Of a stretch of DNA of 64,000 nucleotides, positions 2,583 to 64,000 are shown piece after piece. Source of the stretch: an uncultured Eggerthellaceae bacterium (GTDB lineage Bacteria; Actinomycetota; Coriobacteriia; Coriobacteriales; Eggerthellaceae); assembly GCA_910588095.1 (NCBI GenBank), contig CAJUQH010000009.1, positions 2,606 to 66,605 on the forward strand. Reading direction: 5' to 3'. The position numbers and the translations under genes are program-made. The number at the start of each line of letters is the position of its first letter. The first letter of the stretch is position 1. The notes under the pieces are model-generated. The model searched no databases and was not told the origin of the DNA. It saw only the letters and a list, made by a program, of their open reading frames with translations.

Positions 2583-2639
2583 TTGATTGAAGCTGCCAAG
2601 CCCGTCTGCTCGGTGGCTTATACGGTGACGTTGGCGTGA
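2583..2639 (+). pseudogene. Orphan 3' tail (last 18 codons plus stop) of a surface-protein paralogue
   Basis: Translates to LIEAAKPVCSVAYTVTLA*, against ...LTETAKPVCSVAYTVALA* at 1045..1101. No upstream body; it begins 28 nt after the ATPase stop codon. Confidence 0.65.
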
Positions 2640-2658
2640 GCCTTCTACTGCCCATAAG

Positions 2659-2829
2659 CTAGCCCGTCGCATATTCCATGATGCGGCGGGCGGTGTTGCG
2701 GCTGACTTTCGAGACGTCGCCTTTGCCGAGGTAGGCGTAGACGTTCCCCAGGTTGAGACCAAGTGTCTTGCATACGCGGTAAGCCGTCAGTCGCCGGCGC
2801 TCCATGGCATCGAGCGTTGCCTTGCGCAT
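2659..2829 (-). CDS. Small (56 aa) helix-turn-helix DNA-binding protein, divergent from surface-protein locus A
   Basis: MRKATLDAMERRRLTAYRVCKTLGLNLGNVYAYLGKGDVSKVSRNTARRIMEYATG. ATG at 2829. The longer 107-aa track ORF has an implausible N-terminal extension. Confidence 0.5.
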   Translation of the reverse strand: MRKATLDAMERRRLTAYRVCKTLGLNLGNVYAYLGKGDVSKVSRNTARRIMEYATG

Positions 2830-2842
2830 GAGCTCGATGATG

Positions 2843-2852
2843 CCCCCCCCCC
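2843..2852. repeat. C10 (G10 on the - strand) homopolymer
   Basis: Read directly. It sits 13 nt upstream of the HTH ATG on the - strand and directly abuts the TTGCGC -35 of the surface-gene promoter on the + strand. Confidence 0.95.
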
Positions 2853-2882
2853 TTGCGCGTTCGTGCCGAGGCGTGCTAGAGT
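2853..2882 (+). promoter_or_regulatory. Predicted sigma70-type promoter of surface locus A: TTGCGC-N18-TGCTAGAGT (extended -10)
   Basis: The same -35, 18-nt spacer and TGCTAGAGT are found at 44982..45011 upstream of locus C. Confidence 0.5.
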
Positions 2883-2981
2883 TCGTGCCAACCTGAAAGG
2901 GATGCTTATGCGAGGCTCCCGAGTAGGGCGTCTCATCGGGAAAATGGGATTTGCTTTCGAATCGGGAAGGAAGCAACCGCA

Positions 2982-3125
2982 ATGGATAACCTCACGCAGG
3001 CAAGCTGTGCGCTTGCGCGCATCGCGCGCAGGGCGAGCTGCGCCCTCGTATCGGGCCTTCTGGCCGCAAGCCTCGTCCCAGCCCCTGCCTTCGCGCAGAA
3101 TGCTGAGGGGGGGGTAGCCTCCTAA
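2982..3125 (+). other. Detached signal-peptide ORF of surface locus A (47 codons), out of frame with the body
   Basis: MDNLTQASCALARIARRASCALVSGLLAASLVPAPAFAQNAEGGVAS*. RBS GGGAAGGAAG upstream. Runs through the G8 tract and stops at TAA 3123..3125. Confidence 0.75.
3107..3114 (+). repeat. G8 homopolymer at the signal-peptide/mature-protein junction (candidate phase-variation tract)
   Basis: Read directly. The body frame is stop-free from nt 3107 to 6988. Confidence 0.95.
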
Positions 3126-3247
3126 GCCAAAACATATCCGCTGACGGGTCGGATGGCCCTTCAGCTCACGCACAGCCCGGCAATGATGCCGACGTAGACG
3201 GCGCGGGTGCCGTTGCAGCCCAAGCGGCCGACGGTCTCGCAGCGCCG

Positions 3248-6200
3248 GTGCTGGCCGCTTCGATAGCCGTGCCTTACGAAGGGCGCGTGAGCGCCGATAT
3301 GGCGTTGGGGCCAGATGAGTCGGCACCGCTTGCTGTCGGCTCCTTCACCGTCGACGGCCTCTCCTTCCAGGTGCGCGCTGATGGCTCGGCTGAGTTGGTG
3401 GCGGTCAATTCCCCGGCTGACGCTTACCTTGCGCCGGCTCCCTTCAAGATGCCCGGCGGCTCTCCAGTGGTCACGTTGGAAGTGCCCGCTGCGGTGACCT
3501 ACTACGATGTCGAGTACCCAGTGACTGCGCTCGGCGCCCATGCGTTCTACCTATCGGGCGTGCTGCGAGTCGTGCTGCCTGTCTCCATCGCCTCGGTTGA
3601 CGAGCGGGCCTTCCGCTCGTCCGATGTCGCTTGGGTCGATGTCGACCCCCTCAACCTCGCCTATTCCTCTCATGACGGCGTTCTCTACGACGCCGATCTC
3701 GTTAGCCTCCTGCTCATTCCCGGGGGCAGGGGAGGGGCTGTCCGAGTCCCCGACACGGCTACCTCGGTGCCGGCATCTGCGTTCTCGCATTGCGCAGGGG
3801 TCAGCGCCATAGCCGTCGATGAGGGCAGCCCCGCATTCTCCTCCTGGGAAGGACTCCTATACGATGCCGACGGCACGACGCTTTTGCGCGTGCCCGCAGG
3901 CGCAACCGAGGTCACCATCCGCGAGGGCTGCACCTCAATAGCCGCTGGCGCCCTTGAGGCCTGCGCGAAGCTCGAGCGCATCAACGCGCCAGCGAGCGTG
4001 ACTTCGATATCGCCTGATGTGCTTGCTTCTATCCCCACAGTCTCCTTGCCCGTCGCTTCTGCTTTGGATGGCTCACAGTTGGCCACAGAGGATGATGTTC
4101 TGGAGGATGCACACATAGCCCAGACACTTGCATCAGGGCCCGCCGATGGTTCCAGCAGGGCCGATGGGAGCGAGACGGCGTCCAACCCAGAAGCTTTCGA
4201 TGCAGGGCAAGCTCCTTCAGAGACGGCTTCGCCCCAGTCTTCTCGCACTTCTCCTTCCGAAGCCTCCAGCCCTGCCAATGCGCAGCTCGCCTCGCTCGTA
4301 GCGTTGTCTTCCACGGAGGCTGATGCGACGCCTCAGGTTGATGCTGCTTTCATATCGGTGTGGTTGCCAGAAGGGGCGGTTAAAGCGCTATGGGAAACGG
4401 CAGGATTTGCGGTTTCCAAAGAAACGGCAGCCGTGGCTCCCGGTAGTGACTCCCAGGAGGAAGGGCCGACTGCTGCTATCGAGGGGTCAATGGCCTATGC
4501 CGCCCAATACAACCTTACCAGCTATGCCAACGGCACGATGTATATCGGCTCGTGGACATCCTCCGCCTCCCCTTCTGGCTCAATCAACTCTACGCGATCT
4601 GCAGGATCAGGCTATTACTTTCCCGACAAATGGATAGCGTTCAGTGCTTCTAATGCTTGTGTCACCCATTGGAACGATGAATTGCAGCCAGCGCAGCCTT
4701 ATTGGTACACTGGCATCGGGTCGGTGACGGGCGGCGTGAAGTACGCGACGCTCAACGGGGCATCCTTCAGCGGATCGACGTATCTTTCGGGCGCGGCTAC
4801 CTTATGGATGTACAACGAGACTTCGCCTGTCACCATCACATGGAATGCCAGCTGGACAGGGGGCACTGTGTCCCCTGCATCGAGCCGGCCTGCGTTGGGA
4901 AGCACGCTCAACGCTCCGCTCCCCACGAAGACAGGCCATGACTTCACGGGCTGGTATACCGCCTCGACCGGTGGCTCCAAGGTGTGTGGCAGCGCTTCAT
5001 CTGGGGGTACGACGCCAGCAATCCGCAACAGCGCCACCTACTATGCCCGCTTCACGCCCCATACCTACACGGTCACTCTTGATGCTAAGGGGGGTACGGG
5101 TGCTGGCGGCCCGGTCAAGGCGACATACGGCTCGGCGCTTGCAAAGGTGGCAATCCCCCTCAAGGCTGGGGAGGTGTTCGCCGGCTATTACACCGAAGCA
5201 GATGGCGCAGGTACGCGCATCTACGACGAGCAGGGGAATCCTGCGGTCAGCACATGGAGCATCGCCAAGGACACCACCCTGCATGCCCAGTGGACGGCTA
5301 TCGACTTCGATTTGGATTCGGAGCCAAAGGACGAGGACTACGTCGGCTCTTGGAAAGGCGAAAGCCCCGATGTGACCTTAGAGGAGGGTACGGGCGATCA
5401 GGTGATAGCCAATCCCCAGCGTCCGGGCTATGTGTTCATCGGCTGGGTGTCCGACAATGACCCGAACGATAAGGGGCTGGTCTCGTCGGTTGGAGAAGGC
5501 GATGACAAGAAATGGGTCATCGACTCGGATAAGCTGTTGGATTATACGGGAGAGGATGGCCGGGTGCACCTCACCGCTCGCTGGACCTCCGTCATATCGG
5601 TCGACGTGCCGAGCTCCGTCACGTTCTACGCCGACGCGGTCACCCAAGGAAACGAGAGCCGAGAGGGCTTGGCATCGAGCGCCTTCGGCCAGAGCAAGGT
5701 GGCTAGCCAATCCGAGGTCGACCTTCGCATAGTGGGCCTCGAGTCCAAGCAAGTCAAAGGCAACGGCTCGACGAGTCTCGGTGCTTCTGACATACTCAAG
5801 AAGAAGGATGGCGGCACCGTATCCGGCACAGCTGACAAGCTGTTCAGCTTGTACCCGGCAACTGGCGAGCTCAAAGAAGACGACCTCAAGGACCCCGACC
5901 GCACATCTGCCAAGCCAGCCGACGCGGTCGACTTCTCCCTCGATGACATCCTGCTCGAGAAGTCCTTTGCCGCAGACGAGTTCACCATCCCAGCCGGAGA
6001 CACCCTCTCCCTCGGCTACCGCTTGAACCTCCAAGAAACGGGTACCGAGCTCGACTACGACAAGCTCTCCACCCTCAGCGAGGGCGCTTCCGCCTTCATT
6101 GCGAACATCAGCTATTGCTTCGCTGCGGACGCGCTGCCGTCGGACTGGGGCGAGCCGCTCTGGATCGAGAACCCAGACCAATCTACGAACCCAGCTAAGT

Positions 6201-6988
6201 ACCTCTTGCTCAAAGACATCAAGGCAGCCGCTGATGACCTCTCCGCCAACGGAACATCCTCGACCTATTACTCCATGTACAAGAGCATGCTCGACAGCCA
6301 AGTGACGAATAACGGCAACGCGGGGCGAGGTCCTTACTTCCAATTGAAGGTCGGCAACGCTTACATCGACCTGCAGCTTATCGGGATATGCCAAGACACC
6401 AAATCTGCAGGCGGCAAGGCGGGCCTCACGTTCCAGACGAGGGATATCTACGCCTACGGCAGCATCAAGAGCATCGCAGCCGGTGGAGGCGCGTTCAGCA
6501 CCTACATGAACTTCACCAACACCAATGTGGGCGGTTGGGCCTCGTCTGCCATGCACTCTACCCTGATATCCACCTTCTGGAGTACGCTGCCTGTCGAGAC
6601 CCAGGCTGCCATCGTGGGCGTGGACAAGCACCAGCAGCTGCCCTCAGGCACCACGGCCTCCTACTTGCAGAAGACCACGGGTGAGACCGTCTGGCTTCCC
6701 TCCGTGCGTGAGGTCTTCGGGGCGGCTTTCGCCGACTACAACGAATCAGAGGCCTTGACCACCGTAGCTGGCTACGTTCCCTTCCAGTACATGGCCTATC
6801 AGCCCGGCGGCACGTCCACCCCCAACACCCGTGCCATCAAGACCTACAACGGGTCCGCTTGCATTTGGTGGTTGCGTTCGGCTTGTCGGTACAACACCAA
6901 CCTTTTCTGTCTTGTGCACTCGAACGGCGACCGCAATAACATCACTGCGAACAGCACCATTGGGGCGGCCCCCTGCTTCTGCTTATAG
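3248..6988 (+). CDS. Large surface protein body (BspA-type LRR, Flg_new repeats, family beta-rich domain, C-terminal DUF6273-like 'WWLRS' domain). Frameshifted relative to its signal peptide, so the full locus is 2982..6988
   Basis: 1246-aa ORF. LRR_5-like 'YPVTALGAHAFYLSGVLRVVLPVSIASVDERAF...'. Flg_new-like 'GHDFTGWYTASTGG', 'GYVFIGWVS'. C-terminal 'CIWWLRSACRYN'. Confidence 0.8.
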   Translation: MLAASIAVPYEGRVSADMALGPDESAPLAVGSFTVDGLSFQVRADGSAELVAVNSPADAYLAPAPFKMPGGSPVVTLEVPAAVTYYDVEYPVTALGAHAFYLSGVLRVVLPVSIASVDERAFRSSDVAWVDVDPLNLAYSSHDGVLYDADLVSLLLIPGGRGGAVRVPDTATSVPASAFSHCAGVSAIAVDEGSPAFSSWEGLLYDADGTTLLRVPAGATEVTIREGCTSIAAGALEACAKLERINAPASVTSISPDVLASIPTVSLPVASALDGSQLATEDDVLEDAHIAQTLASGPADGSSRADGSETASNPEAFDAGQAPSETASPQSSRTSPSEASSPANAQLASLVALSSTEADATPQVDAAFISVWLPEGAVKALWETAGFAVSKETAAVAPGSDSQEEGPTAAIEGSMAYAAQYNLTSYANGTMYIGSWTSSASPSGSINSTRSAGSGYYFPDKWIAFSASNACVTHWNDELQPAQPYWYTGIGSVTGGVKYATLNGASFSGSTYLSGAATLWMYNETSPVTITWNASWTGGTVSPASSRPALGSTLNAPLPTKTGHDFTGWYTASTGGSKVCGSASSGGTTPAIRNSATYYARFTPHTYTVTLDAKGGTGAGGPVKATYGSALAKVAIPLKAGEVFAGYYTEADGAGTRIYDEQGNPAVSTWSIAKDTTLHAQWTAIDFDLDSEPKDEDYVGSWKGESPDVTLEEGTGDQVIANPQRPGYVFIGWVSDNDPNDKGLVSSVGEGDDKKWVIDSDKLLDYTGEDGRVHLTARWTSVISVDVPSSVTFYADAVTQGNESREGLASSAFGQSKVASQSEVDLRIVGLESKQVKGNGSTSLGASDILKKKDGGTVSGTADKLFSLYPATGELKEDDLKDPDRTSAKPADAVDFSLDDILLEKSFAADEFTIPAGDTLSLGYRLNLQETGTELDYDKLSTLSEGASAFIANISYCFAADALPSDWGEPLWIENPDQSTNPAKYLLLKDIKAAADDLSANGTSSTYYSMYKSMLDSQVTNNGNAGRGPYFQLKVGNAYIDLQLIGICQDTKSAGGKAGLTFQTRDIYAYGSIKSIAAGGGAFSTYMNFTNTNVGGWASSAMHSTLISTFWSTLPVETQAAIVGVDKHQQLPSGTTASYLQKTTGETVWLPSVREVFGAAFADYNESEALTTVAGYVPFQYMAYQPGGTSTPNTRAIKTYNGSACIWWLRSACRYNTNLFCLVHSNGDRNNITANSTIGAAPCFCL

Positions 6989-7281
6989 CTCAAGCGGCGG
7001 GAAAGGCAAGGGCCGAGGCCGTCTCGCGCAGCACTGTGAACAGTACTTTACGTCTGTTTGTGATAAGCGCCACCAGCCATGGGCGCGAGGGTGACTCGTG
7101 ACAGTGCCCCTGCTTCCAGCGAGCGTATATGAAAGCTGAAACGAGCGAACGCAGCGGCCCGCAAGCAGAGCGTGGAGGCTGAGCACCCATGGCTGGTGCC
7201 GCACCCGATAGAAGGTGTCGCGGAACAGTAGGCGTCTTGTGTCCCGCTCAGAATGACGGGGTGGCACCTATATCCCACCAC

Positions 7282-7313
7282 AAAAAAGGACAACGGGGCA
7301 TTTCCCGTTGTCC
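7282..7313 (-). terminator. Rho-independent terminator (- strand)
   Basis: GGACAACGGG/CCCGTTGTCC stem (7288-7297 / 7304-7313), followed on the - strand by TTTTTT (7287-7282). Lies 147 nt downstream of the rubredoxin stop codon. Confidence 0.6.
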
Positions 7314-7459
7314 TTCGGCCTTGCGTTGCGCACCCTGCCCAAGGCAGCCCTGGCCACCTACGCCCCATCGGCGCCCTGGAACAAAGCGCCTACGCACAGC
7401 GCCATGGCCGCATTGCGCGAACGGTGCGGCTTCTCATCGTGATGGCGGAACCTGAACAG

Positions 7460-7624
7460 TCATTCCTCCACCATCGAGAACGCGCTCTTGGGGGCGCCGC
7501 ACTCGGGGCACGTCCAATCGTCAGGCAGCTCCTCGAAGGGGGTGCCGGGATCGATGCCGTTGTCGGGGTCGCCGATGGCGGGGTCGTAGATCCAACCGCA
7601 GATGTCGCATTCGTACTTAGCCAT
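7460..7624 (-). CDS. rd: Rubredoxin
   Basis: [15 protein letters not shown]...[10 protein letters not shown], with two CxxCG knuckles. RBS GAGGAGG upstream. Confidence 0.9.
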
Positions 7625-7978
7625 AAGGTCCTCCTCGGTAGGGGTGCGTGGGGCGCTGCATTCCGAGTTAGCAGAGAAGCAGCGCCAACTGCTGGGGGTT
7701 ATTGTACGCAGGCCGCTCCTGGCTCGATGCCGCACCGCGTCGCCGTTACCGCCCGTTCATCATTCTGTAAGGTGCCGCCGCGCATGCCCTTGCGCCTCGC
7801 CGCCGCGCCTTCGGAAACCGTGGCCGCCTTCTCTATATAATGGGGCTGAGCCGTCGGGCTGCTTGCATATATAAAGAAGCCCTCGCCAAAAGAGGGGCCG
7901 CTCGTCCAAGGCAAGCGAACAACCCGCCCGGCAAAGCTCGCCACCCAGCAGGCCCGCGGAAAGGAAGGAGGACGCGCC

Positions 7979-8890
7979 ATGCTCGAACCGCTCGTGCGGG
8001 AATACCTGGCCTACCTGCGCATCGAGCGCGGCTGCTCGCCCCTTACCAGCGAAGCCTACGGGCGCGACCTGGCCGGCTACGCCGCCTTCCTCGAAGGATG
8101 CGGCATCGCCGAGCCGGCCGGCATCGACCGCGCCGTGCTGGTGGACTACGAGGCATCGCTGGTCGAGCAGGGCTTCGCGCCCACCACGGTGAAGCGCCGC
8201 GTGTCGGTGCTGAAGGGCTTCCACCGCTACCTGGTGCGCGAGGGCTACACCTCCAAGAACCCTGCCGACGCCGTGAGCCTGCCGAAGGTGCCCGAGCGCC
8301 TGCCCGACGTGCTGAGCATCGACGAGGTGGGCCGCATGCTGGACGCTCACATAGACCCCAGCCCCACGGGCCTGCGCGACCGCGCGCTGCTGGAAGTGCT
8401 CTACGGTTGCGGCCTGCGCGTGAGCGAAGCAGCCGGGCTCGACACGGGCGACGTGTTCATGGAGGAAGGCTTCGTGCGCGTGCTGGGCAAGGGCAGCAAA
8501 GAGCGCATCGCCCCCATCGCAGGGAAGGCCGCTGAGTGCCTGAGCGCCTACCTGGCCGAGGCGCGGCCGCCGCTCAGCCGCAAGGCGACCAAGGTGAAGC
8601 CGGCCGATGTGTCGGCCGTGTTCCTGAACGCGCGCGGCGGGCGCCTGACGCGCCAGAGCATCCACGCCATCGTGGCGAAGGCGGGCACCGCCATCGGCCG
8701 CGAGGGCCTGCACCCCCACACGCTGCGCCACTCATTCGCCACGCACATGCTCGAAGGCGGCGCCGACCTGCGCGTCATCCAGGAGATGCTGGGCCATTCC
8801 GACATATCCACCACCCAGATATACACCCACATCGATCGCAGCCACCTGCAAGCGGAATACGTGAGCGCCCACCCCCGCGCCAAGCGATAA
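7979..8890 (+). CDS. xerD: Site-specific tyrosine recombinase, XerC/XerD family
   Basis: 303 aa. 'HPHTLRHSFATHMLEGGADLRVIQEMLGHSDISTTQIYTH' contains the R..HxxR..Y catalytic pattern. XerC cannot be distinguished from XerD by eye. Confidence 0.8.
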   Translation: MLEPLVREYLAYLRIERGCSPLTSEAYGRDLAGYAAFLEGCGIAEPAGIDRAVLVDYEASLVEQGFAPTTVKRRVSVLKGFHRYLVREGYTSKNPADAVSLPKVPERLPDVLSIDEVGRMLDAHIDPSPTGLRDRALLEVLYGCGLRVSEAAGLDTGDVFMEEGFVRVLGKGSKERIAPIAGKAAECLSAYLAEARPPLSRKATKVKPADVSAVFLNARGGRLTRQSIHAIVAKAGTAIGREGLHPHTLRHSFATHMLEGGADLRVIQEMLGHSDISTTQIYTHIDRSHLQAEYVSAHPRAKR

Positions 8891-25976: not shown

Positions 25977-28900
25977 ATGCGAGCACCTGCTGTTTCTTTC
26001 GCACACAAGATCGCTGCTGCCACCCTGGCGGCTTTGCTGACGTTCACCCTCGTGCCTTTCGCCCATGCAGATGGGGAAGGGATTGGGGCCGAGGGGTCCG
26101 AGGGGGCATTCGGCTCAAGGGGTTCCGAAGCGAAGCAAGTACCTTTAGGTGCAACTTCGCTTCAACCCCCATCGGACCCCTCGACTGAGGCTGCTGATCC
26201 TTCCGTCACCCTGAGCGGAACCGCCGAAGGCGGCGAAGTCGAAGGATCCGATACAAAACCACTGACTTTGGCATCGGGGTTGGTCGGCACTCCCTCTAAC
26301 TTCATCAACTCCGACGTTGCCCTCGACAGCGAGCCCGTCATCGGTTCCTTCACGGTCGACGGCCTCACTTTCGCTGTTGCGGAAGGCTCGACCGTAGAGT
26401 TGGTAGGGGTCGCCGGGGCCGAGGGGGCATTCGGCTCAGAGGTTCCAACTTCGCCTCAACCCCCATCGGCCCCGACGCCCGAAGCTGTGAACCTTGTTCT
26501 TCCAGAAACCGTCGCTTACGAGGGCTCGGAATATACCCTCGCCTCCATAGCTCCCTACGCCTTATACCTCTCGGGCGTGACTGACGTCACGTTGCCTGCG
26601 AGCGTATCCGACGTGGACGACCGCGCATTCCGCTCAAGCGATGTGGCGAGCGTCACGGTTGCTGAAGGCAACCCAGCCTATTCCTCTTCCGACGGCGCCT
26701 TGTATGACGCCGACCAACTCAGCCTCTTGCTCATTCCCGAGGGCAAGCAGGGCACTGTCCGCATCCCGAAGACCGCAGAGGTGGCAGAGGCCAGCGTGTT
26801 CTCGCATTGCCCGCTGGCGGATTCCATCTCTGTGGATGCGGGCAGTGCAGCATTCGCCTCGGAGAATGGTCTTTTATACACGTCCGACCTCACGACCCTG
26901 CTCCGTGTACCAGCCGGTGCGACCGAGATAACTATCCGAGAGGGCTGCACGACCATAGCTGCCGGCGCCATGGAAGCTTGTGCTAACCTCACGACCATCA
27001 ACGCACCCGCGACCGTTACTTCAATCAGTCCTGATGTCTTCCACGCGATACCGACTGTGAGTCTGCCGGCTGCTTCTGTCATTCTGAGCGAAGCCGCTGA
27101 AGGCGGCGAAGCCGAAGAGCCCAATGAAAACCAAGCCAGCAAAGTTGGCGACCAACTTACCGCCATGGTCGCTCTGTCCTCGACTGATGATGACCTGTTG
27201 GAGGTTAGACCCTTTGCAATCGAAGTTGAGTTGCCTGAGGGGGTCGACACGGCCGTCTGGCAGCATCGGGAATTTCTTATAAATGAAACCTCTTTTGAAG
27301 ATAATGGACAACCTGTTGAAGCCGCCTTGGAAAGAGAGCTTCAGACATCAGAAACATATGCTGCTGGCACCTATACCCTTATCGTGTACTCGGGTAGCTA
27401 TGGAGGTACCATCAGCGGCTCGGAAGCAGGGTCAGGAAATCCGCTAACAATAACCGGAGTTACGCGCTTCACAGCATACGGGCCAAGTTCTGCTGGAAGG
27501 GGGTCTCTTCAGTATTTAAAAAATGGGTCGCTGTATCAAGTTACCGCAGCGCGGGGCAGCTCTGTTTCTTTGATTGGATGGAACGTAATGGGCGTGGGCT
27601 GGGCTCGGGATTCAGGGGATGTTACGATGCAGTCTCCACAGAATTCCATGGAAGTTACTGTTGCGGCAATTTGGAGTGATTTCACTTATAGGGTGAACTA
27701 TAACCTCAATGGGGGTATCCAAAATTACTGGAATGGGTGGGCCTATCATCCTGGCGAAAGGATAACCTTCGCTACTCCTACTAAGCTGGGTTATGACTTT
27801 GGCGGCTGGTATAACAACGCTGCTCTCTCTGGAAGTCGAATCGAATCAGTGACAAGCGTGGCGGGAGGGTCGCTGTCTCTTTGGGCAAAATGGATCCCCA
27901 AGACTTATCAGTTGAGCTATAGCCTCGACAATGGATCCTGGGTCGGCCCGATTCCCGCAAGAGACACCTACACCATCGAGACGCCTACGTTCGTGCTGCC
28001 GTCTGTGGAGAGGAAAGGCTATGCCTTCTCTGGTTGGTCAGGAACAGGCCTCACCGGTTCTGCCAACAAGACGGTCACCATCGCAAATGGCTCTACCGGT
28101 AATCGCTCCTATACAGCTCACTGGACCCCCAACTCCTATACCGTCCAGTACCGCAACAAAGCAGACACGGCCACTCTGTCTACTGATGCAGGCTTCAAGT
28201 ACGATACGGCAAGAGCTCTTGCAGCCAAGCCGACGAGCGGCGTCAGCGCAGGCTATACCGCAGTGGGCTGGGCAACGGCGAAGGACCAATCGAGCGCGAC
28301 GTATGCGTTTGGCAGCTCTCAGAAGAACCTCGCGACCTCAGGCACGAGGAAGCTCTACCTAGCCGAGAAGGCCAACCCCTACGCCATCGCCTTCGATTCC
28401 CAAGGCGGCCCAGAAGTGCCCTCCATCGGCGCCACCTACGACCAGGACGTGACGCTGCCAGCGCCAGGTGCCCGCAACGGGTACCGGTTCCTAGGATGGA
28501 ACACGAAAGCCGACGGCAGCGGGACGGCCTATCAAGCAGGTGTGGTCCTCGCCAAGCCCAACCTCGCCACGAGCGGCACGGCCACGCTCTTCGCCCAGTG
28601 GGATGCGGTCATATCGGCGGTGGTCCCCCTTGAGGTGCAAGCCCAAGTCGACGTGCTCGGGCTGGAAGCGCCCAAGGAGGCGCAAGGCTGCATCGAGTCG
28701 CGCTGCGGCGAGCCTCTTAAGGTGGCAAGGGTGGACCTCACCCCGCTTGACGGCGCAGCCGAGCTGTTCGGCGAGGGCAACGTATCTGACGTGTTCCTCG
28801 AGGTGCTGGCAGAAGGCAGCACCTCTCCCAACGCCCGCTTCTCCTTGGGCTCTTCCGCAACCGAATCCGACGCATCCAAGCTCCAAGCCTTCACCATGGC

Positions 28901-29027
28901 AAGCTACGGCACGCGGATGCCCATAAGCTACCGGTTCGCCATGCCGTCTGACGTGCAGACCTCGCTTCTCGAGCATGCCGACCCGAAGCCGGTCTGCACG
29001 GTGGCGTATACGGTGGCTTTGGCGTAG
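25977..29027 (+). CDS. Large secreted surface protein, intact (signal peptide, BspA-type LRR, Flg_new repeats, family C-terminal domain)
   Basis: 1016 aa. Signal peptide 'MRAPAVSFAHKIAAATLAALLTFTLVPFAHA'. LRR_5-like 'IAPYALYLSGVTDVTLPASVSDVDDRAF'. Several 'GY.F.GW' Flg_new repeats. C-terminus '...KPVCTVAYTVALA'. Confidence 0.9.
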   Translation: MRAPAVSFAHKIAAATLAALLTFTLVPFAHADGEGIGAEGSEGAFGSRGSEAKQVPLGATSLQPPSDPSTEAADPSVTLSGTAEGGEVEGSDTKPLTLASGLVGTPSNFINSDVALDSEPVIGSFTVDGLTFAVAEGSTVELVGVAGAEGAFGSEVPTSPQPPSAPTPEAVNLVLPETVAYEGSEYTLASIAPYALYLSGVTDVTLPASVSDVDDRAFRSSDVASVTVAEGNPAYSSSDGALYDADQLSLLLIPEGKQGTVRIPKTAEVAEASVFSHCPLADSISVDAGSAAFASENGLLYTSDLTTLLRVPAGATEITIREGCTTIAAGAMEACANLTTINAPATVTSISPDVFHAIPTVSLPAASVILSEAAEGGEAEEPNENQASKVGDQLTAMVALSSTDDDLLEVRPFAIEVELPEGVDTAVWQHREFLINETSFEDNGQPVEAALERELQTSETYAAGTYTLIVYSGSYGGTISGSEAGSGNPLTITGVTRFTAYGPSSAGRGSLQYLKNGSLYQVTAARGSSVSLIGWNVMGVGWARDSGDVTMQSPQNSMEVTVAAIWSDFTYRVNYNLNGGIQNYWNGWAYHPGERITFATPTKLGYDFGGWYNNAALSGSRIESVTSVAGGSLSLWAKWIPKTYQLSYSLDNGSWVGPIPARDTYTIETPTFVLPSVERKGYAFSGWSGTGLTGSANKTVTIANGSTGNRSYTAHWTPNSYTVQYRNKADTATLSTDAGFKYDTARALAAKPTSGVSAGYTAVGWATAKDQSSATYAFGSSQKNLATSGTRKLYLAEKANPYAIAFDSQGGPEVPSIGATYDQDVTLPAPGARNGYRFLGWNTKADGSGTAYQAGVVLAKPNLATSGTATLFAQWDAVISAVVPLEVQAQVDVLGLEAPKEAQGCIESRCGEPLKVARVDLTPLDGAAELFGEGNVSDVFLEVLAEGSTSPNARFSLGSSATESDASKLQAFTMASYGTRMPISYRFAMPSDVQTSLLEHADPKPVCTVAYTVALA

Positions 29028-43597: not shown

Positions 43598-44956
43598 ATG
43601 AAAGGGCTTCCCATGAGAAGGCATATAACTGCGAAGCTCGAAGAGTGGAAGCGCTCGCCGCGGAGGAAGCCGCTGCTGCTTCGGGGAGCTCGGCAAGTAG
43701 GGAAGACCTGGGCTCTCACTGAGTTCGGGCGTGCTTCCTATGAGAACCTGGCTTACTTCAACTTCGACCTCAACGCGGAATACAGGCAGTTCTTTCAGCT
43801 GACCAAAGACCCGCATCGTATCATGGAGAATCTGGCTGCCGCCAGCGCTCAACCTATCTTCCCCGAGAAGACCTTGATCGTGTTCGACGAGGTGCAGGCG
43901 TGTCCCGAGGCCATCGCGTCGCTCAAGTACTTCTGCGAGCAGGCACCGGACTATCACATTGCTTGCGCTGGGTCGCTGCTCGGGGTGGCTCTGTCGCATC
44001 CGGCATCTTTTCCTGTGGGCAAGGTGGACGTGATGGATATGCACCCTATGACCTTCGAGGAGTTCTTGGCTGCAGGCGACGGGGCAATCTTGGCGGCGTA
44101 TCTTAGGGGGGTTGATGCTCTTGAGCCCCTACCTGATGCGTTCTTCAACCCGCTGTTGGAGAAGCTGCGTCTCTACTTCCTGACCGGCGGCATGCCCGAA
44201 GCGGTGCTCGTGTGGCTTGAGACCCGCGATGTGGGGGCGTTGCAAGCCACGCTGAGCAACTTGCTCGACCTTTACGCGCTTGATTTCCAGAAGCACGCGC
44301 CGGAATCGCTTTTCGCGAAGATAGAGCTCGTGTGGCGGTCGATGCCCTCGCAGCTTGCGCGCGAGAACAAGAAGTTCCTCTATAGCTTGGTACGGGAAAG
44401 CGCCCGTGCCCGCGAGTACGAGGATGCTATCGAATGGCTGGTCAAGGCCGAGCTGCTGACCAAGGTGACGCGCTGCGCGAAGCCCGCCCTTCCGCTGAGC
44501 GCCTATGACGAGCCGCAGGCGTTCAAGCTGTACCTGCTCGATGTGGGTCTGCTGCGGCGGTTTTCGTCGTTGGCTCCCTCGGCCATAACGGAGGGCAACC
44601 GCCTGTTCACGGAATTCAAAGGGGCATTGACGGAGAACTTCGTGCTACAGGAGCTGCTGCCTCAGTTCGATGCGCGCCCACGCTACTGGGTTATGGATAA
44701 CCCGCGATACGAAGTGGACTTCATGGTGCAATCGGACAACGACATCGTTCCCATTGAGGTCAAGGCGGGCGAGAACGTGAAGGCGAAAAGCCTACGGAAG
44801 TATCGCGAGAAGTACGAGGCCGCAACGCCGCTGGCGGTGCGCTTCTCGCTGCGCAACCTGACGTGCGAAGGGGGCGTGCTCAATGTGCCGCTTTTCATGG
44901 CTGGCCAAACCGAGCGCTTGCTGCAGCTTGCCAAAGAAGGACCCTGCCGTCGCTAA
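43598..44956 (+). CDS. AAA+ ATPase of the DUF4143 / COG1373 type (second, divergent copy)
   Basis: Walker A 'GARQVGKT', Walker B 'IVFDEVQ', C-terminal 'YEVDFMV...PIEVKAGENVK'. Confidence 0.8.
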   Translation: MKGLPMRRHITAKLEEWKRSPRRKPLLLRGARQVGKTWALTEFGRASYENLAYFNFDLNAEYRQFFQLTKDPHRIMENLAAASAQPIFPEKTLIVFDEVQACPEAIASLKYFCEQAPDYHIACAGSLLGVALSHPASFPVGKVDVMDMHPMTFEEFLAAGDGAILAAYLRGVDALEPLPDAFFNPLLEKLRLYFLTGGMPEAVLVWLETRDVGALQATLSNLLDLYALDFQKHAPESLFAKIELVWRSMPSQLARENKKFLYSLVRESARAREYEDAIEWLVKAELLTKVTRCAKPALPLSAYDEPQAFKLYLLDVGLLRRFSSLAPSAITEGNRLFTEFKGALTENFVLQELLPQFDARPRYWVMDNPRYEVDFMVQSDNDIVPIEVKAGENVKAKSLRKYREKYEAATPLAVRFSLRNLTCEGGVLNVPLFMAGQTERLLQLAKEGPCRR

Positions 44957-44970
44957 GGCTCAGACGCTTG

Positions 44971-44985
44971 ACCAGGCAGGTTTGC
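44971..44985. repeat. Right copy of the 15-bp direct repeat ACCAGGCAGGTTTGC (overlaps the -35 of the locus C promoter)
   Basis: Read directly. Confidence 0.9.
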
Positions 44986-45011
44986 GCTTTCTCTCGAAGG
45001 TGTGCTAGAGT
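44982..45011 (+). promoter_or_regulatory. Predicted promoter of surface locus C: TTGCGC-N18-TGCTAGAGT
   Basis: Same architecture as 2853..2882. Confidence 0.5.
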
Positions 45012-45128
45012 GCGCATCACTTGGCGGCTTCGAGCTTCACCTGTTGCAATGCGAGCGCAGGGGCAGCAAGGACGCTGAGCAAAACGGGAACATACTTTGC
45101 TTTCGCATCGGGAAGGAAGCAAGACGAA

Positions 45129-45257
45129 ATGCGAATCGGTAACGCCTTGCGGCATGCTGCCGCATCATCTTTCGGCATAGCCTTGTCTATCATGTTGGCT
45201 TCAAGCCTGCTGCCCGCTGACGCCTTGGCAGAAGGCGTGGGGGGGGTAGCCCTCTAA
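45129..45257 (+). other. Detached signal-peptide ORF of surface locus C (42 codons), out of frame with the body
   Basis: MRIGNALRHAAASSFGIALSIMLASSLLPADALAEGVGGVAL*. RBS GGGAAGGAAG upstream. Runs through the G8 tract and stops at TAA 45255..45257. Confidence 0.75.
45239..45246 (+). repeat. G8 homopolymer at the signal-peptide/mature-protein junction (candidate phase-variation tract)
   Basis: Read directly. I translated the body frame codon by codon from 45239 to 45431 and found no stop. Confidence 0.95.
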
Positions 45258-45430
45258 GCCAAAGCGAACCAGATCCTGGTTCGGAGGTCCCTTCAGCCTC
45301 TGAAGAAGCTGCGGAAGGCGCCGCTGCGGATGGCGGTGCAGGCGCTGATGCGGAAGGCGGGCCTTCCGTCACCCTGAGCGAAGGGGCCGCAGGCCCCGCA
45401 GTCGAAGAATCCAGTTCAAAACTACAAACC

Positions 45431-48400
45431 TTGGCCTCTGCCCTTGCGGGCAAGCCCGCCGCGTTCGTCAACGCCGATGTCGCCCTCGATGGTGAGCCTA
45501 TTGTGGGCTCCTTCACCGTCGATGGTTTGACCTTCGCGGTCACAGGGGAATCCCACGTCGAGCTCGTCGGGGTTGCCCCTTCCGTCACCTTGAGCGGAGC
45601 TGCCGAAGGCGGCGAAGCCGAAGGGCCCGATGAAGGCCACGCCAGCGAAGCTAGCGTCGCCAACCTCACCCTCCCCGGATCCGTCACCTACTCCGACACT
45701 GACTACGCCCTCGCCTCCATTGGCGCCTACGCGTTCTACCTCTCGGGCGTGGCCGATGTCATGCTGCCCGCAAGCGTGAACGATGTTGATGACCGTGCGT
45801 TCCGCTCGAGCGACGTCGCCAACGTCACCGTCGCCGACGGCAACCCCAGCTTCTCCTCCTACGACGGCGTCCTCTACGACGCCACCCGATCAAGCCTCCT
45901 GCTCATTCCCGGGGGCAGGCAGGGCGCTGTCCGCATCTCCGACAAGGCCGAGGAGGTGGACGCGTCGGCCTTCTCGCATTGTGCTGGCGTGGATTCGATC
46001 TCGGTCGATGCGGGCAGCGCGCACCTCTCCTCCTGGGAAGGACTCCTATACGATGCCGATGGCACGACGCTCCTGCGCGTGCCGGCAGGCGCCACCGACA
46101 TCACCATACGAGAGGGCTGCACGACCATAGCCGCCGGCGCCATGGAGGGCTGCGCGAGCCTTGAGCGCATCAACGCACCATCGACCGTGACCTCCATCAG
46201 CCCGGATGTGTTCCATGCGCTGCCAACAGTGAGCCTGCCAGCCGCCGCTTTTGCAAAGGAGGCAACGCAGCTCACGGCCATGGTTGCCTTGTCCGCTACC
46301 GGGGAGGATTCCCCACGAATAGACCCGAGCACCATTTTCGTCACAGTGCCTTCTGAGGCCAATGCGATGCTATGGCGCAAGGTTGGGCTCGTGCTTGCAT
46401 CAAACGCCTTGGTTGATGCAGATGAGCCAGCTGCCCAATCGCCAGCTCTATTTGGAGCACCGCGTGTTGCCGGCTATGATTCGACTGCGAATTTCAGCAG
46501 TGTTTTGGGTGGTGGAAATGCTCAATGGTCTTTCAATTCCTCTAGTGGCAATCTGACGATTTGCTGCCATGTCATGGGTGGCCGTCCTTCGATCATCGAT
46601 GATCAATTCAAGTACACTGTCGGCTCTGGTGACCGAGTCAATTACTCAGCTGTCCCTTGGTATAGCTTCAAGGATGAGATAAAGAGCATCACATTCATCG
46701 ACTTCGACGCAACGGACACGACGGCATGGTTTGCGGGCTGCCGCAACCTTGAGAGCATAAGGTTCGTTGCGCAGAACACGGCAAAGCCGCCGCTATCGTC
46801 GGTCGTTTCGACATCTCGCATGTTCGAGAGCTGTGGAAAGCTTAAGGCCATTCCCTCGAACTTTACGTTGGAGGCTTCGACGGAGCTCGTGTCGACCAAT
46901 CATATGTTCACCGATTGCGTAAGCTTGTCGGGCAGCATCCCCGCGGGTATGACGCTCACAGCAAGCGGGAAAAAGCTCGTCCAAGTGGCATGCATGTTCG
47001 CCAATTGCGTGAAGCTATCTGGCGAGATTCCTTTTACGCTAGAGAATTATGCTGGCACGGGTTTCGACTATATGTTCGCATCTTGCCGGAAGATAACCAA
47101 CATACCGTCTCGTTTCACGATGCCGTCTGGCGCAACCGTGACATCTGCTTTCAAGGTGACGATGGACGCGGCCGCGATTCGTGCTGGACAAGGCGATGGA
47201 AGCATCGATTTAAACGGCAAGCTGGTGACCACTTATGCGGGAACGAATAGCGTTGTCAAAGGGCTGAACTGGGACCTATGGGAACGGTCGCTTGGAACTC
47301 AGAGATATGAGATTGTGTTCAACACGAACGGGGGAAGCGGGGAATTCTACCAGACAAGGGTGGGCGCCGTTTATGGGTCGCAGCTCCTCTATAGCACTCC
47401 GGTTTACCGTCTGCCCTCTCCCGCGTTGGAGAAGACGGGGTATGGCAATTGCGACGGATGGATTCTCGGCAAAGCCACAGGCGATAAAACCCATGGGCTC
47501 GGCGCGGAGGTCTCTAACCTTACGGCTACGCCGAATGGCACCGTAACGTTCTACGCGCACTATACTCCGAACGACTATGCGATCTCGTTCGATGTCAACG
47601 GAGGCAAGGATGCTCCCAACAACAAGCCGGTCGATGCGACCGCCACATTCGATGCTGCGTTGCCGGCCATCGGCGCCAACAAGCCAGTGCGGGATGGTTA
47701 CGCTTTCAGCGGGTGGTATGACACCAGCGCCGCCACAGGCGGGAACATGTACTACGATGCGGAGAATAGGGCAGTACCGGGGAAGGCTTGGGACAAGGCC
47801 GACAATACGACCCTGTATGCGCGTTGGACGCCCAACAGCTACACCATCGCCTTCGACTCCCAGGGCGGGCCGGAGGTGGCATCCATGCAAGCGACCTATG
47901 ACTCCGATGTGACGCTGCCCCAGCCTGGTGGGCGCGAAGGCTATGCGTTCGGGAGCTGGAATACCGAAGCTGACGGAAGCGGGGCGGCTTATCAAGCCGG
48001 CATCGCTCTTGCGAAGCCCAACTTGACGACAAGCGGCACGGTTCCGCTTTATGCCCAATGGGTCGCGATCGAAGAAGCAGTCGTGCCCCTTGAGGTGACC
48101 GCGCGGGTGGACGTGCTCGGCATCGAGGACCAGACGCCAGCAACGGGCTACATCGAGTCACGCTGCGGCGAGCCGCTGAAGGTGGCCTCTGTTGAGATCA
48201 CCTCGCTGCCTGGCGCGACCGAGCTGTTCGGCGCGGGCAACGAATCCCAAGTGCAGCTTCAAGCGCTCGCAGGGGAAGGCGCCGCATGGCAGCCTGGCGG
48301 TGCCAACGCCAGCTTCTCGTTCCCGCTGGGGGCTTCCGCGACCGAATCGGACGCAGGCAAGCTGGCTGCCCTCACCATGCAAGCCTACGAGGATCGCGTC

Positions 48401-48505
48401 CCGATAAGCTACCGCTTCGCGATACCCGAGGCGCTGCTGTCCAGCCTAGCCGAAACCACCAAGCCTGTCTGCTCGGTGGCCTACACGGTGGCGCTGGTGA
48501 GCTAA
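45431..48505 (+). CDS. Large surface protein body (BspA-type LRR_5, DUF285-type 'MFxxC' repeats, Flg_new repeats, family C-terminal domain). Frameshifted relative to its signal peptide, so the full locus is 45129..48505
   Basis: 1024-aa ORF. 'IGAYAFYLSGVADVMLPASVNDVDDRAF'. 'MFESCGKLKAIPSNF / MFTDCVSLSGSIP / MFANCVKLSGEIP / MFASCRKITNIPSRF'. 'GYAFSGWYD', 'GYAFGSWNT'. C-terminus '...KPVCSVAYTVALVS'. Confidence 0.8.
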   Translation: MASALAGKPAAFVNADVALDGEPIVGSFTVDGLTFAVTGESHVELVGVAPSVTLSGAAEGGEAEGPDEGHASEASVANLTLPGSVTYSDTDYALASIGAYAFYLSGVADVMLPASVNDVDDRAFRSSDVANVTVADGNPSFSSYDGVLYDATRSSLLLIPGGRQGAVRISDKAEEVDASAFSHCAGVDSISVDAGSAHLSSWEGLLYDADGTTLLRVPAGATDITIREGCTTIAAGAMEGCASLERINAPSTVTSISPDVFHALPTVSLPAAAFAKEATQLTAMVALSATGEDSPRIDPSTIFVTVPSEANAMLWRKVGLVLASNALVDADEPAAQSPALFGAPRVAGYDSTANFSSVLGGGNAQWSFNSSSGNLTICCHVMGGRPSIIDDQFKYTVGSGDRVNYSAVPWYSFKDEIKSITFIDFDATDTTAWFAGCRNLESIRFVAQNTAKPPLSSVVSTSRMFESCGKLKAIPSNFTLEASTELVSTNHMFTDCVSLSGSIPAGMTLTASGKKLVQVACMFANCVKLSGEIPFTLENYAGTGFDYMFASCRKITNIPSRFTMPSGATVTSAFKVTMDAAAIRAGQGDGSIDLNGKLVTTYAGTNSVVKGLNWDLWERSLGTQRYEIVFNTNGGSGEFYQTRVGAVYGSQLLYSTPVYRLPSPALEKTGYGNCDGWILGKATGDKTHGLGAEVSNLTATPNGTVTFYAHYTPNDYAISFDVNGGKDAPNNKPVDATATFDAALPAIGANKPVRDGYAFSGWYDTSAATGGNMYYDAENRAVPGKAWDKADNTTLYARWTPNSYTIAFDSQGGPEVASMQATYDSDVTLPQPGGREGYAFGSWNTEADGSGAAYQAGIALAKPNLTTSGTVPLYAQWVAIEEAVVPLEVTARVDVLGIEDQTPATGYIESRCGEPLKVASVEITSLPGATELFGAGNESQVQLQALAGEGAAWQPGGANASFSFPLGASATESDAGKLAALTMQAYEDRVPISYRFAIPEALLSSLAETTKPVCSVAYTVALVS

Positions 48506-61562: not shown

Positions 61563-62351
61563 TTAGAAATTCCGAATCCCTTCAAATGCCGCCCCTAATA
61601 TCAATCCCAGCAAGAAAGTAATGATTCCAAACCACCATCGACCATTAAGCAGCTCATAGATACCCTGAGGATGCAAGCCGTAAACTTCTATTAAAGAGCT
61701 AGCGATTTTCAATCGATTCTCGCAAGCCATGCTTATGATATTGGAAATTTCATTCACTTTTCGAAGCGTGGACTGATGAAGCTTGACATATTCTTGTGCA
61801 TCGAATGCAATGGCCTCTCCTTCTCCTGATAGCAATTCTTTGCGACCCATATCGTTTAGCTCTAAGAGTTTTTGCATGCGGGGATGGCCACCTGCGTATC
61901 CTTCTCCGTAACAATCCTTTAGTACCCGAGCGATATCGATGAGTTTGCTATCATCTATCCTGTGGGGAACGCCGTTTAACACTTCGTAGCGATGGTAAAT
62001 CGCAGGGAAACCATAATTGATGTCTCTCATATTCCAATGAACCCATTTGGATTTTGTAGATTTCTGAATAAAGTCCATAAGCTCATCAAGCATGGCCTTT
62101 TCGAGCTCATCGTATTTATCGCTGATTGCGGCAAGCGGCACTCCCTGTTTTTCGGCAATTTTATGAATCGAAAAGGAGTGCGTTTGACCGGAATCAAGCT
62201 CCCTTACAGCAATAGAAGTAATTCGTGGGGTTCTCCCATCATGAATATCATAGAAGCTTTCGCATGAGTAATGGATTACCAGATAATCTCTTGGCGATTC
62301 TTCAATTTCTTTTAAGGTCTTCCTAGCCTGTTTGTGTCTCTTATAACGCAC
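61563..62351 (-). CDS. Uncharacterised 262-aa protein with a C-terminal TM anchor and a DnaQ/DEDD-exonuclease-like motif pattern (hypothesis). Translationally coupled to the upstream ATPase
   Basis: GTG start 2 nt after the ATPase TAG, with GAGGAA RBS. Motifs 'LVIHYSCESF', 'WVHWNMRDINYGF', 'AIAFDAQEYVKLH'. TM 'WWFGIITFLLGLILGAAF'. Lies in the low-GC island. Confidence 0.6.
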   Translation of the reverse strand: MRYKRHKQARKTLKEIEESPRDYLVIHYSCESFYDIHDGRTPRITSIAVRELDSGQTHSFSIHKIAEKQGVPLAAISDKYDELEKAMLDELMDFIQKSTKSKWVHWNMRDINYGFPAIYHRYEVLNGVPHRIDDSKLIDIARVLKDCYGEGYAGGHPRMQKLLELNDMGRKELLSGEGEAIAFDAQEYVKLHQSTLRKVNEISNIISMACENRLKIASSLIEVYGLHPQGIYELLNGRWWFGIITFLLGLILGAAFEGIRNF

Positions 62352-62353
62352 GT

Positions 62354-64000
62354 CTATTCCTCAAAATCTAGCCATTTGTTGGGAATTAGCTTTTCTCCAT
62401 CAGTTTCCCAATGCTCTACTTCATAAATCGACCGAAACTCTCCCCAGATATCTTTGCCTGCGTGCTCAGTGACAATGATTTGGAAATCGAAATCATCTTC
62501 TTTTAGGAATTTATCAAACGAAGCAAAGATTTTTTTAACCGCTGCACGATCCCTGTCTGCTTCTATGTTTTCTGAATCCGCATGTCCAATATTTTCATTT
62601 ATCTCATGTGCGTGTGGAAAATATACTTGGCTCGGCTGATCATAAAAAATGAAGCTCGGAATACTAAGAGGCGAGTTTGCTTGAAGGTATTTTTGCAATG
62701 CTAAAGAGAAGGCTATATGATAAGAAAGCCAGTTTGAGGCGCTTCCAATTTCACTGAGCAGCCTAATTGATCCTTCGTTATCGATAATCTCAAGAGAAAG
62801 ATTTTTGTAATCAAAGACTGTCTTCCAGTCATCATGCTCAACATCCAGACTTTTTAGTCCAAATTTTGTATATGCTGCAATATCTTCAATTGCTTGATGA
62901 AGTTTTTGAGCCGTGTTTGCAGCGCTGAGGAGAGTTTCGAGCTCGTTCTGCCTCTTTAGCAAAGCTTCAATCTTTGATTCCGCTTCAGTATCCCGGAAAA
63001 TGGCTTTAAATTGCTTTAGAGAAGCCCGTAATTCTCCGATGAATCGCTCGATTTCCGATAACGTAAATCGTGTGCTGCTTTGCTCTTCTTCCAACGCTCT
63101 AAGTTCACTTGAAACGGCGTTTAATTCATCGCTGGCTGTTTGAATCTTGCTTAAGAGTGTTTTTCTTTCCTTGTCGAATCCAAGTTTAATTTGAGATGCA
63201 GAAGCTTCACTATTGATTTCGAGGGATAAGGCTTGAAGACTCTCTAGCTCCTTATGGCCCTCACGTAATTGCTGACCGCATATTGGGCACGCCTCTTCTT
63301 CGGATACTCTGTGAAGCAACCATTCTGTTATGCCGATGTAATCTGTTAACGAATCTAGCGTTTCTTCCATTTGATCATAAGACAGCAGTGCTTTATCTAT
63401 TTTCTCTAATCGTCGAATGAGGTCTGCCTTCTCCATCGAGAGATCTGCTTCGATTGAGCTCAACTGAGCGATCTTTTCTGAAGCGGCCCCAGCTTCACTT
63501 ACGGTTTCTAAAATATCGGAATGATTTAATTGGCTGATGCGCTCGATTTCTTTAAGCAAATCATCAAAGTCCTCTGTAAGGTCAGGGTCGAATGTACTAA
63601 CTCCCAATTCGCAAGCTCGTGTAATTTTTCCTTTTGCTGACATCTTCCAGCTTGCCGAAACGTTTTTAAGAGCCTTCACTTCGTTCTGAAGTCTCGCAAG
63701 TCGTTTTTTAACCTCTTCTAGTTCCAACTCATTAACTAAGTCTCGCGAGGTTATGGCTCCGGCAAGATAAGGGAATATGCTCGCAAGTTTTTGTTTATGC
63801 TCCAGTTTATCCAGCTTATAGAACAAAGCTTCAGGGTTTGCGATGATATTTTGCGGTTGATATAAAAAGGCGGCTATATCACGAAATGACGGCCTTTCGG
63901 TTTTCCAGGCCCCTTGGTCAGCTATTGGAAGGTCCGTGAAGCCGAATTGCTGATTAAGAAGGTCTTTTATATTTTCGGAAGTAGTATTTTCAGTAATGAA
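62354..64000 (-). CDS. Rad50/SMC-like ABC ATPase of the DUF3732 type; 5' end (Walker A) lies beyond the window edge
   Basis: The frame is open from nt 64000 (the track ORF starts at TTG 63826). 'FLYQPQNII' (Q-loop-like), long coiled coil with 'CPICG' at 63275..63289, 'SEIGSASNWLSYH' (signature-like), 'FIFYDQPSQVYFP' (Walker B / DQP motif), 'IIVTEHA' (H-loop). Confidence 0.75.
   Translation of the reverse strand, partial: FITENTTSENIKDLLNQQFGFTDLPIADQGAWKTERPSFRDIAAFLYQPQNIIANPEALFYKLDKLEHKQKLASIFPYLAGAITSRDLVNELELEEVKKRLARLQNEVKALKNVSASWKMSAKGKITRACELGVSTFDPDLTEDFDDLLKEIERISQLNHSDILETVSEAGAASEKIAQLSSIEADLSMEKADLIRRLEKIDKALLSYDQMEETLDSLTDYIGITEWLLHRVSEEEACPICGQQLREGHKELESLQALSLEINSEASASQIKLGFDKERKTLLSKIQTASDELNAVSSELRALEEEQSSTRFTLSEIERFIGELRASLKQFKAIFRDTEAESKIEALLKRQNELETLLSAANTAQKLHQAIEDIAAYTKFGLKSLDVEHDDWKTVFDYKNLSLEIIDNEGSIRLLSEIGSASNWLSYHIAFSLALQKYLQANSPLSIPSFIFYDQPSQVYFPHAHEINENIGHADSENIEADRDRAAVKKIFASFDKFLKEDDFDFQIIVTEHAGKDIWGEFRSIYEVEHWETDGEKLIPNKWLDFEE

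Follow-up and report, generated by a model that had tools for sequence, protein, structure and literature searches.

Phase variation at homopolymeric tracts is textbook knowledge for mucosal pathogens. The opa genes of Neisseria, a Gram-negative pathogen, form a multigene family of surface adhesins in which each copy is independently switched at the level of translation by a repeat in the leader region (CTCTT pentamers inside the signal peptide) and most copies are off. In Campylobacter jejuni, whose genome is AT-rich and devoid of mismatch repair, the switched loci mostly encode surface-modifying enzymes and are largely unrelated to one another. The mutability of C. jejuni tracts grows with tract length, with G8 tracts mutating mainly by insertion and G11 tracts mainly by deletion (PMC3401435). 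Among gut commensals, an experimentally studied precedent is provided by the pilus loci bbr_0113 and bbr_1889 of Bifidobacterium breve UCC2003, where a G tract separates an open reading frame (ORF) with a signal peptide from a body ORF that has neither a Shine–Dalgarno (SD) sequence nor a signal peptide of its own; the two ORFs are out of frame in the reference genome and putting them in frame results in pili (PMC9187656). Candidatus Mycoplasma girerdii carries a large family of BspA-like leucine-rich repeat (LRR) proteins, several members of which contain repeats that vary in vivo, and in a number of the genes concerned the majority genotype is predicted to be off with rare variants that are on (PMC5476646). 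The present study concerns locus C (45129–48505), a gene interrupted by a run of eight G residues (G8) within a 64,000-nucleotide stretch of DNA (the window; positions 2,606 to 66,605 of contig CAJUQH010000009.1, assembly GCA_910588095.1) from an uncultured Eggerthellaceae bacterium. The best explanation of the locus is that it belongs to a family of contingency genes with at least nine members in this mouse-gut species.

All features described for locus C are located on the forward strand. The leader ORF (45129–45257) starts at the ATG at 45129, comprises 42 codons (MRIGNALRHAAASSFGIALSIMLASSLLPADALAEGVGGVAL), and ends at the TAA at 45255–45257. It encodes a signal peptide with the hydrophobic core SFGIALSIMLASSLL (Kyte–Doolittle mean 1.93) followed by ALA-EG, and corresponds to the G8 (OFF) frame. 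The G8 tract (GGGGGGGG, 45239–45246), the putative switch, is located 37 codons into the leader ORF. A TAG that abuts the 3′ end of the tract (45247–45249) terminates the reading frame of the G7/G10 phase, leaving a leader of 39 or 40 amino acids (aa), and the TAA at 45255–45257, which is part of an invariant CTAAGCC, terminates that of the G8/G11 phase. The body ORF (45248–48505) encodes BspA-type LRR_5 and Flg_new repeats and would be translated at G9. The body frame contains no stop codon from 45221 until the TAA at 48503–48505, and the insertion of one G into the tract results in a single translated ORF of 1125 aa. An in silico series of tract lengths from G5 to G13 produced an ORF of >838 aa at G6, G9, and G12, and 39–43 aa at all other lengths. 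The initial annotation of this DNA had placed the tract and the start and stop codons of the leader at the positions given here, had traced the body frame back to the tract without a stop codon, and had proposed that G9 restores a secreted protein of more than 1100 aa; each coordinate was recovered, the frame is open as described, and the 1125-aa ORF contains a predicted signal peptide.

An SD-like sequence (GGGAAGGAAG) precedes the leader ATG and none precedes the internal starts that are called mechanically within the bodies (TTG at 45431 in locus C and GTG at 3248 in locus A), which argues that the leader is the only translation start. The 5′ untranslated region (UTR) contains a conserved block with the SD sequence (TTTGCTTTCGCATCGGGAAGGAAGCAA, 45096–45122) that ends 6 nt short of the ATG. 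This block matches the window at just two places (2950–2976 and 45096–45122, compared with zero expected) and is present in all initially fetched A and C loci as well as in the paralogues E, G, and H. Further upstream, a block at 44982–45011 (TTGCGC, 18 nt, TAGAGT, with TGC directly before the second hexamer) is common to locus A (2853–2882), locus C, and the paralogues E and H, and is a putative promoter; this assignment follows from the conservation of the block, since a scan with the sigma-70 consensus called no promoter at locus A or locus C. In other assemblies, small ORFs annotated on their own encode near-identical leader peptides that end in ...GVGGVAL.

The window contains a sister switch at locus A (2982–6988, forward strand). 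Its leader ORF (2982–3125) contains a G8 tract (3107–3114) followed by a TAG (3115–3117) and a TAA (3123–3125), and the body extends to 6988; a G9 tract would create a protein of 1335 aa. Both leaders have a basic start, a hydrophobic core (Kyte–Doolittle mean of ∼1.9–2.0 over 15 residues), and ALA or AFA before the tract. The two G8 tracts and a C10 tract at 2843–2852 are the only homopolymers of eight or more bases in the 64 kb, as had been noted by eye. Their number is at chance level: three G/C runs of eight or more were observed compared with 3.5 ± 1.7 in 100 dinucleotide-preserving shuffles, and shorter thresholds reveal a depletion (∼3.4-fold for runs of six or more, 14 vs. 47; 4 vs. 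12.8 for runs of seven or more). A plain excess of long G/C runs is thus ruled out, and with it the idea that such runs are unusually frequent in the window. It is the placement of the runs that is non-random, because both G8 tracts are found at the same junction between signal peptide and mature protein of two paralogues and a poly-G tract is located at this junction in nine out of nine leaderless family members inspected.

The organization of locus C is similar to that of the B. breve pilus switch in that an actinobacterial gut commensal combines a signal-peptide ORF, a poly-G tract, and the body of a putative surface protein. The differences concern the protein (BspA-type LRR and Flg_new repeats with no LPxTG motif and no adjacent sortase gene, and thus not a sortase-dependent pilin), the tract (G8 vs. 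G10/G11), and the host (class Coriobacteriia vs. Bifidobacteriales); furthermore, the locus C family includes at least nine paralogues with conserved stop codons in both OFF frames and is known from sequence alone. Intragenic G/C runs of approximately 8–11 bases in many genes per genome are shared with C. jejuni, whereas the family described here consists of a single set of paralogues with a common cassette in an actinobacterium with 64.5% GC. The family organization resembles that of the opa genes, but the repeat is a homopolymer just past the signal peptide and the proteins are unrelated. In the mollicute Ca. M. girerdii, the repeats are mainly dinucleotides at various positions, in contrast to the poly-G tract at one fixed junction in the locus C family. 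Full-text literature searches returned no account of phase variation by simple sequence repeats in the Eggerthellaceae or the Coriobacteriia. With the B. breve pilus loci as an experimental precedent among gut commensals (PMC9187656), the kind of mechanism proposed here is already known; what makes the locus notable is a family-wide poly-G cassette in at least nine BspA-type genes of one mouse-gut species. The stop codons in both OFF frames stand out, as does the second hypermutable tract, a C tract next to the putative promoter of locus A.

The cassette was identified in at least nine paralogues (A and C–J) and consists of the upstream block, the UTR/SD block, the signal peptide, and the poly-G tract followed by TAR and CTAAGCC. 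G8 is found in paralogue A (window, L004, L005, and L028–L037), paralogue C (window, L001, and L003), paralogue D (L008 and L009), paralogue E (L009–L014), paralogue F (L015–L017), paralogue G (L022 and L023), paralogue H (L024–L026), and paralogue J (a JGI contig). Other lengths are G7 in paralogue A (L002), G9 in paralogue E (L008), G10 in paralogue I (L027), and G11, at the same junction, in a more distant homologue, K (47% identical, in frame at G10; L038 and L039). Among the 120 closest clusters of the family, 44 (∼37%) lack an N-terminal leader and 75 contain one; the nine leaderless members mentioned above are the clusters of this set that were inspected at the DNA level. A scan of genome contigs by protein alignment returned two loci and the peptide patterns proved too strict, and a metagenome scan with the pattern GGGGGN{0,9}TARYCYYCTAAGCCAA returned four stretches, of which one (L020, G8) belongs to the family and three are chance hits to contigs of 45–54% GC that have no relation to it.

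G8 together with TARYCYYCTAAGCCAA is retained in A, C–H, and J, and paralogue I contains G10 with CCGA in place of the final CCAA. The TAR after the tract is kept as TAG or TAA in all paralogues, and conservation extends to the upstream block (GTGTGCTAGAGTGCGCATCAC) and to the UTR block (...TCGGGAAGGAAGCAA...), whereas the signal peptides and bodies have diverged (synonymous divergence, dS, of 0.4–1.4). The initial annotation had described a 3′ context common to loci A and C and had argued that the run itself is maintained. The context is shared, with a sequence of TAGCCYYCTAAGCCAAA (TAGCCTCCTAAG in A and TAGCCCTCTAAG in C) in place of the TAGCCYCYTAAGCCAAA given there, and maintenance of the run is borne out by the at least nine diverged paralogues. 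In the paralogues A–I, a long ORF exists at G6, G9, and G12 only, and both OFF frames end 0–3 codons past the tract; across seven long ORFs in the window, only 0.39% of the codon positions are followed by a stop codon within four codons in both alternative frames. The TAR is used as the stop codon in locus A of L002 (G7, 44-aa leader ending with TAA) and in paralogue I of L027 (G10, called as a 41-aa gene ending with TAG). The invariant TAR and TAA are read here as selected, such that each OFF phase would yield just a short leader. Locus B (25977–29027) encodes a 1016-aa paralogue with LRR_5 and Flg_new repeats, an intact leader (MRAPAVSFAHK...), and an interrupted G-rich sequence at the site where its relatives carry the run; by its sequence, it is a non-switchable family member within the same region.

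Tract lengths of G7, G8, G9, G10, and G11 were observed across the family. The G9 allele of paralogue E (L008) and a G8 allele (L009), identified in two samples of one study, align over 4402 bp with zero mismatches and a single gap, which is the additional G. The in-frame ORF of the G9 allele is annotated as a 961-aa protein and is present in the protein collection (P0170), which provides a natural example for the earlier proposal that G8 holds the gene OFF and G9 restores it. A similar pattern is found for the C tract of locus A (2843–2852, C10 in the window), which abuts the first hexamer of the putative promoter (putative −35 element TTGCGC, 2853–2858). Among the window and 13 fetched loci, one has C8, nine have C9, and four have C10, in backgrounds that are 0–3 substitutions from the window. 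The gap in the C tract is the sole difference between L030 and the window, and L004 differs by this gap and one mismatch in 7.7 kb. The G and C runs are the indel-polymorphic sites in near-clonal genomes, because paralogue E differs by one G and the C tract varies from C8 to C10 within near-identical backgrounds. No C run comparable to that before locus A was found at loci C, E, and H, and the C tract, as a second hypermutable run, may switch or tune transcription at locus A specifically. The resting states among the loci are ON−2 (A, G7), ON−1 (G8), ON (E, G9), and ON+1 (I, G10; K, G11), a mixture that fits bidirectional slippage and not a fixed recoding event.

The restored proteins match the BspA-type LRR_5 and the Listeria-Bacteroides repeat (Flg_new) above the Pfam cut-offs. 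Locus C scores 54.7 bits for LRR_5 (PF13306; cut-off 27.7) and 74.1 bits for Flg_new, and locus A scores 29.2 bits for LRR_5 (cut-off 27.7) and contains a C-terminal DUF6273. Close database relatives are entries named only “leucine-rich repeat protein [Eggerthellaceae bacterium]” from metagenome-assembled genomes (MAGs), one of them labelled MGBC and presumably from mouse gut. Two types of C-terminal ends recur among the paralogues (A, 6850–6988; C, 48370–48505; D, F, G, and H), one with ...KPVCSV(A/T)YT(V/M)AL... and the other a DUF6273 end with ...PCF(C/A)L. An LPxTG-like motif was absent from the C-terminal 120 residues of A, C, D, F, and G, and H contained a loose match only (LSMSG); the gene downstream of locus C encodes a solute-binding protein and no sortase gene is adjacent. 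The paralogue bodies are open for 811–1547 codons, and pairwise dN/dS ratios within the first 420 aligned codons range from 0.31 to 0.48 (0.37–0.48 for locus C against the others), values that identify purifying selection on the bodies. Seven protein clusters (P0001, P0107, P0004, P0014, P0073, P0011, and P0018) are called from internal starts in the public annotation and appear there as “leucine-rich repeat proteins” that lack a leader. Part of what these bacteria secrete is therefore probably missed, because the annotation produces N-terminally truncated, non-secreted proteins of this kind.

The sequence downstream of the tract in locus C can form a hairpin (CGAACCAG-ATC-CTGGTTCG, 45265–45283, forward strand), identified by RNA folds and covariation, that starts 18 nt 3′ of the tract and 7 nt past the G8-phase stop codon. 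Across seven paralogues, 87.8% of the cells in the alignment of the stem are paired, compared with 14–49% when the hairpin is slid by 1–3 columns, and three out of seven base pairs display compensatory changes at synonymous sites. The hairpin is in register in six out of seven paralogues, including the equivalents in E, F, H, I, and J, and is not in register at locus A. The conservation of the hairpin is suggestive only, as it is drawn from seven related sequences and the structure was derived from the same seven. Folds of the tract and the following 50 nt in single sequences were not significantly more stable than shuffled sequences (z-scores of −0.5 to −2.4).

The observations on the tract, its context, and its variation point to slipped-strand phase variation at the DNA level as the main mechanism of this surface-protein family, with a probability of roughly 0.8. 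Each gene would consist of the upstream block, the UTR/SD block, a Sec-type signal peptide, and a poly-G tract a few codons past the predicted cleavage site, and slipped-strand mispairing during replication would add or remove one G. With a G9 tract (or G6 and G12), the signal peptide would be joined in frame to a BspA-type LRR/Flg_new protein of approximately 800–1550 aa that is likely exposed on the surface. Translation would end at the TAA within CTAAGCC at G8 and G11 and at the TAR directly after the run at G7 and G10, and both OFF phases would produce only the leader of approximately 40 aa. With a consensus of G8, one insertion short of ON, most copies would be silent, and expression of one copy or of a few is presumably limited to rare cells, which would give rise to variable surface phasotypes; the switch would be reversible and its role adaptive. 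The dominance of G8 is most simply read as ON being usually selected against in the gut, with G8 as the most stable OFF neighbor of ON. A length-dependent bias of the C. jejuni type (insertions in G8 and deletions in G11) would explain a resting state that is one step from ON. The family suggests that individual cells of these commensals differ in their surface, for example, in response to immunoglobulin A or phages.

Several observations weigh against slipped-strand switching at locus C. G8 is by far the commonest state, a single ON allele was identified overall (at paralogue E), no in-frame allele of locus A or locus C was found, and exact matches to the G9 products predicted for the A and C alleles of the window are absent from the protein collection. 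The upstream block, the putative promoter, matches the sigma-70 consensus only weakly (7 out of 12 positions). No known anchor motif was found, which makes surface retention of the proteins a presumption from sequence, and the conserved 3′ context and the hairpin are not needed for simple DNA slippage and hint at an additional layer. The census of ON alleles is biased by gene calling and by the exact-match look-up, and ON forms lie inside 90% clusters that are represented by an OFF call. A profile search with the restored N-termini returned OFF-phase leader peptides only. The exact look-up of G7, G10, and G11 leader peptides found none in the collection; like the absence of the G9 products, this is a weak negative, since the existing G7 allele (L002) was also missed because the gene caller picked another ORF.

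A more far-reaching, tentative reading is that the elements around the tract form a modular selected cassette that is kept or spread in a third or more of a large Eggerthellaceae LRR family, with the hairpin and/or the 3′ context acting in cis. Such a cassette would combine the UTR/SD block and the signal peptide with a G8 tract one step short of ON, a stop codon in each OFF frame, and a conserved hairpin 18 nt downstream of the tract. The cis elements might tune replicative or transcriptional slippage or handle the terminated leader transcript, and the result would be 2^9 or more surface phasotypes in a commensal actinobacterium, possibly with low-level leakiness at the RNA level.

Programmed recoding at a fixed G8 tract, either by RNA polymerase slippage that adds one G or by a −1 ribosomal shift on G GGG GGG, would lead to constitutive low-level production of the proteins. 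Relative to the leader, the body is read in the −1 frame, and the run is formally compatible with an X XXY YYZ heptamer; nearly all assemblies and eight paralogues carry G8, purifying selection acts on the bodies despite an OFF consensus, and the 3′ context is conserved together with a downstream hairpin that displays compensatory changes. However, no single direction of shift serves the family, as I (G10) and K (G11) are at ON+1 and A in L002 (G7) is at ON−2, and the G9 allele of paralogue E is a DNA-level change in an otherwise identical background. Stimulators of −1 frameshifting are usually spaced 5–9 nt from the slippery site, a distance exceeded by the hairpin, which is 18 nt past the run and out of register at locus A. 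The G-tract expression of the B. breve pilus loci is ascribed to replication slippage by the authors (PMC9187656). Recoding in place of DNA-level switching is therefore unlikely, and −1 ribosomal frameshifting was rejected as the main mechanism based on the hairpin spacing and the mixed ON−1 and ON+1 states of the homologues. Recoding may act alongside DNA-level switching, and low-level transcriptional slippage at G8 is conceivable.

The paralogues might alternatively be decaying pseudogenes that are frameshifted and out of use, as all consensus copies but one are out of frame and automatic annotation assigns N-terminally truncated proteins to them. This explanation is very improbable because the bodies remain open with the dN/dS ratios given above and the lesion is confined to a mutable site: at least nine paralogues share the position of their sole lesion, conservation covers the upstream block, the UTR, the signal peptide, and the context of the tract, and one allele is restored to frame by a single G.

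The initial annotation had raised homopolymer under-calling as a real alternative, in which the true tract is G9 at both loci and the genes are intact, since both tracts in the window are exactly one G below the in-frame length as systematic under-calling would yield. The assemblies that contain G8 are mostly SPAdes-style NODE contigs and MAGs together with one JGI contig, and are presumed to be based on short reads (Illumina). Against an artefact, G8 recurs across contigs of numerous samples and assemblers, at A, C, D, E, F, G, H, and J. An exact look-up identified the 47-aa G8-phase leader of A in eight allelic forms within 102 contigs (60 + 31 + 3 + 3 + 2 + 1 + 1 + 1), and locus C is G8 in all three sources (window, L001, and L003), with L001 carrying the body ORF of the window exactly, called from an internal start. 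The same data sets yield G7, G9, G10, and G11 at sister loci, which shows that tract length is resolved, and stop codons conserved in both OFF frames would be senseless if OFF were never real. A sequencing or assembly artefact thus deserves scarcely any credence. An invertible element was rejected, as no inverted repeats of 12 nt or longer are present in 44700–45500 or 2560–3300.

The window starts inside another member of the family (1–1101), which contains Flg_new repeats and ends with a C-terminal ...KPVCSVAYTVALA module as in C, D, and G; its 5′ end is outside the window. The LRR loci (1–8000, 26000–28000, and 44000–48000) have a GC content of 55–61% compared with 65–72% in the surrounding housekeeping genes. 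Genes that encode AAA_14 and DUF4143 domains are located immediately upstream of A and C (1212–2555 and 43598–44956) and adjoin G, H, I, and K in L022, L024, L027, and L038. The two genes in the window match the candidate defence family PDC-S01 of PADLOC (E = 1e-172 and 1e-174). At the other end of the window (61563–64000), the last 2 kb have a GC content of 41% compared with 65–72% nearby, and an ORF on the reverse strand (62354–63826) matches DUF3732 and the Lamassu protein LmuB (E = 7e-63); this region is probably a horizontally acquired defence island that is cut by the end of the window.

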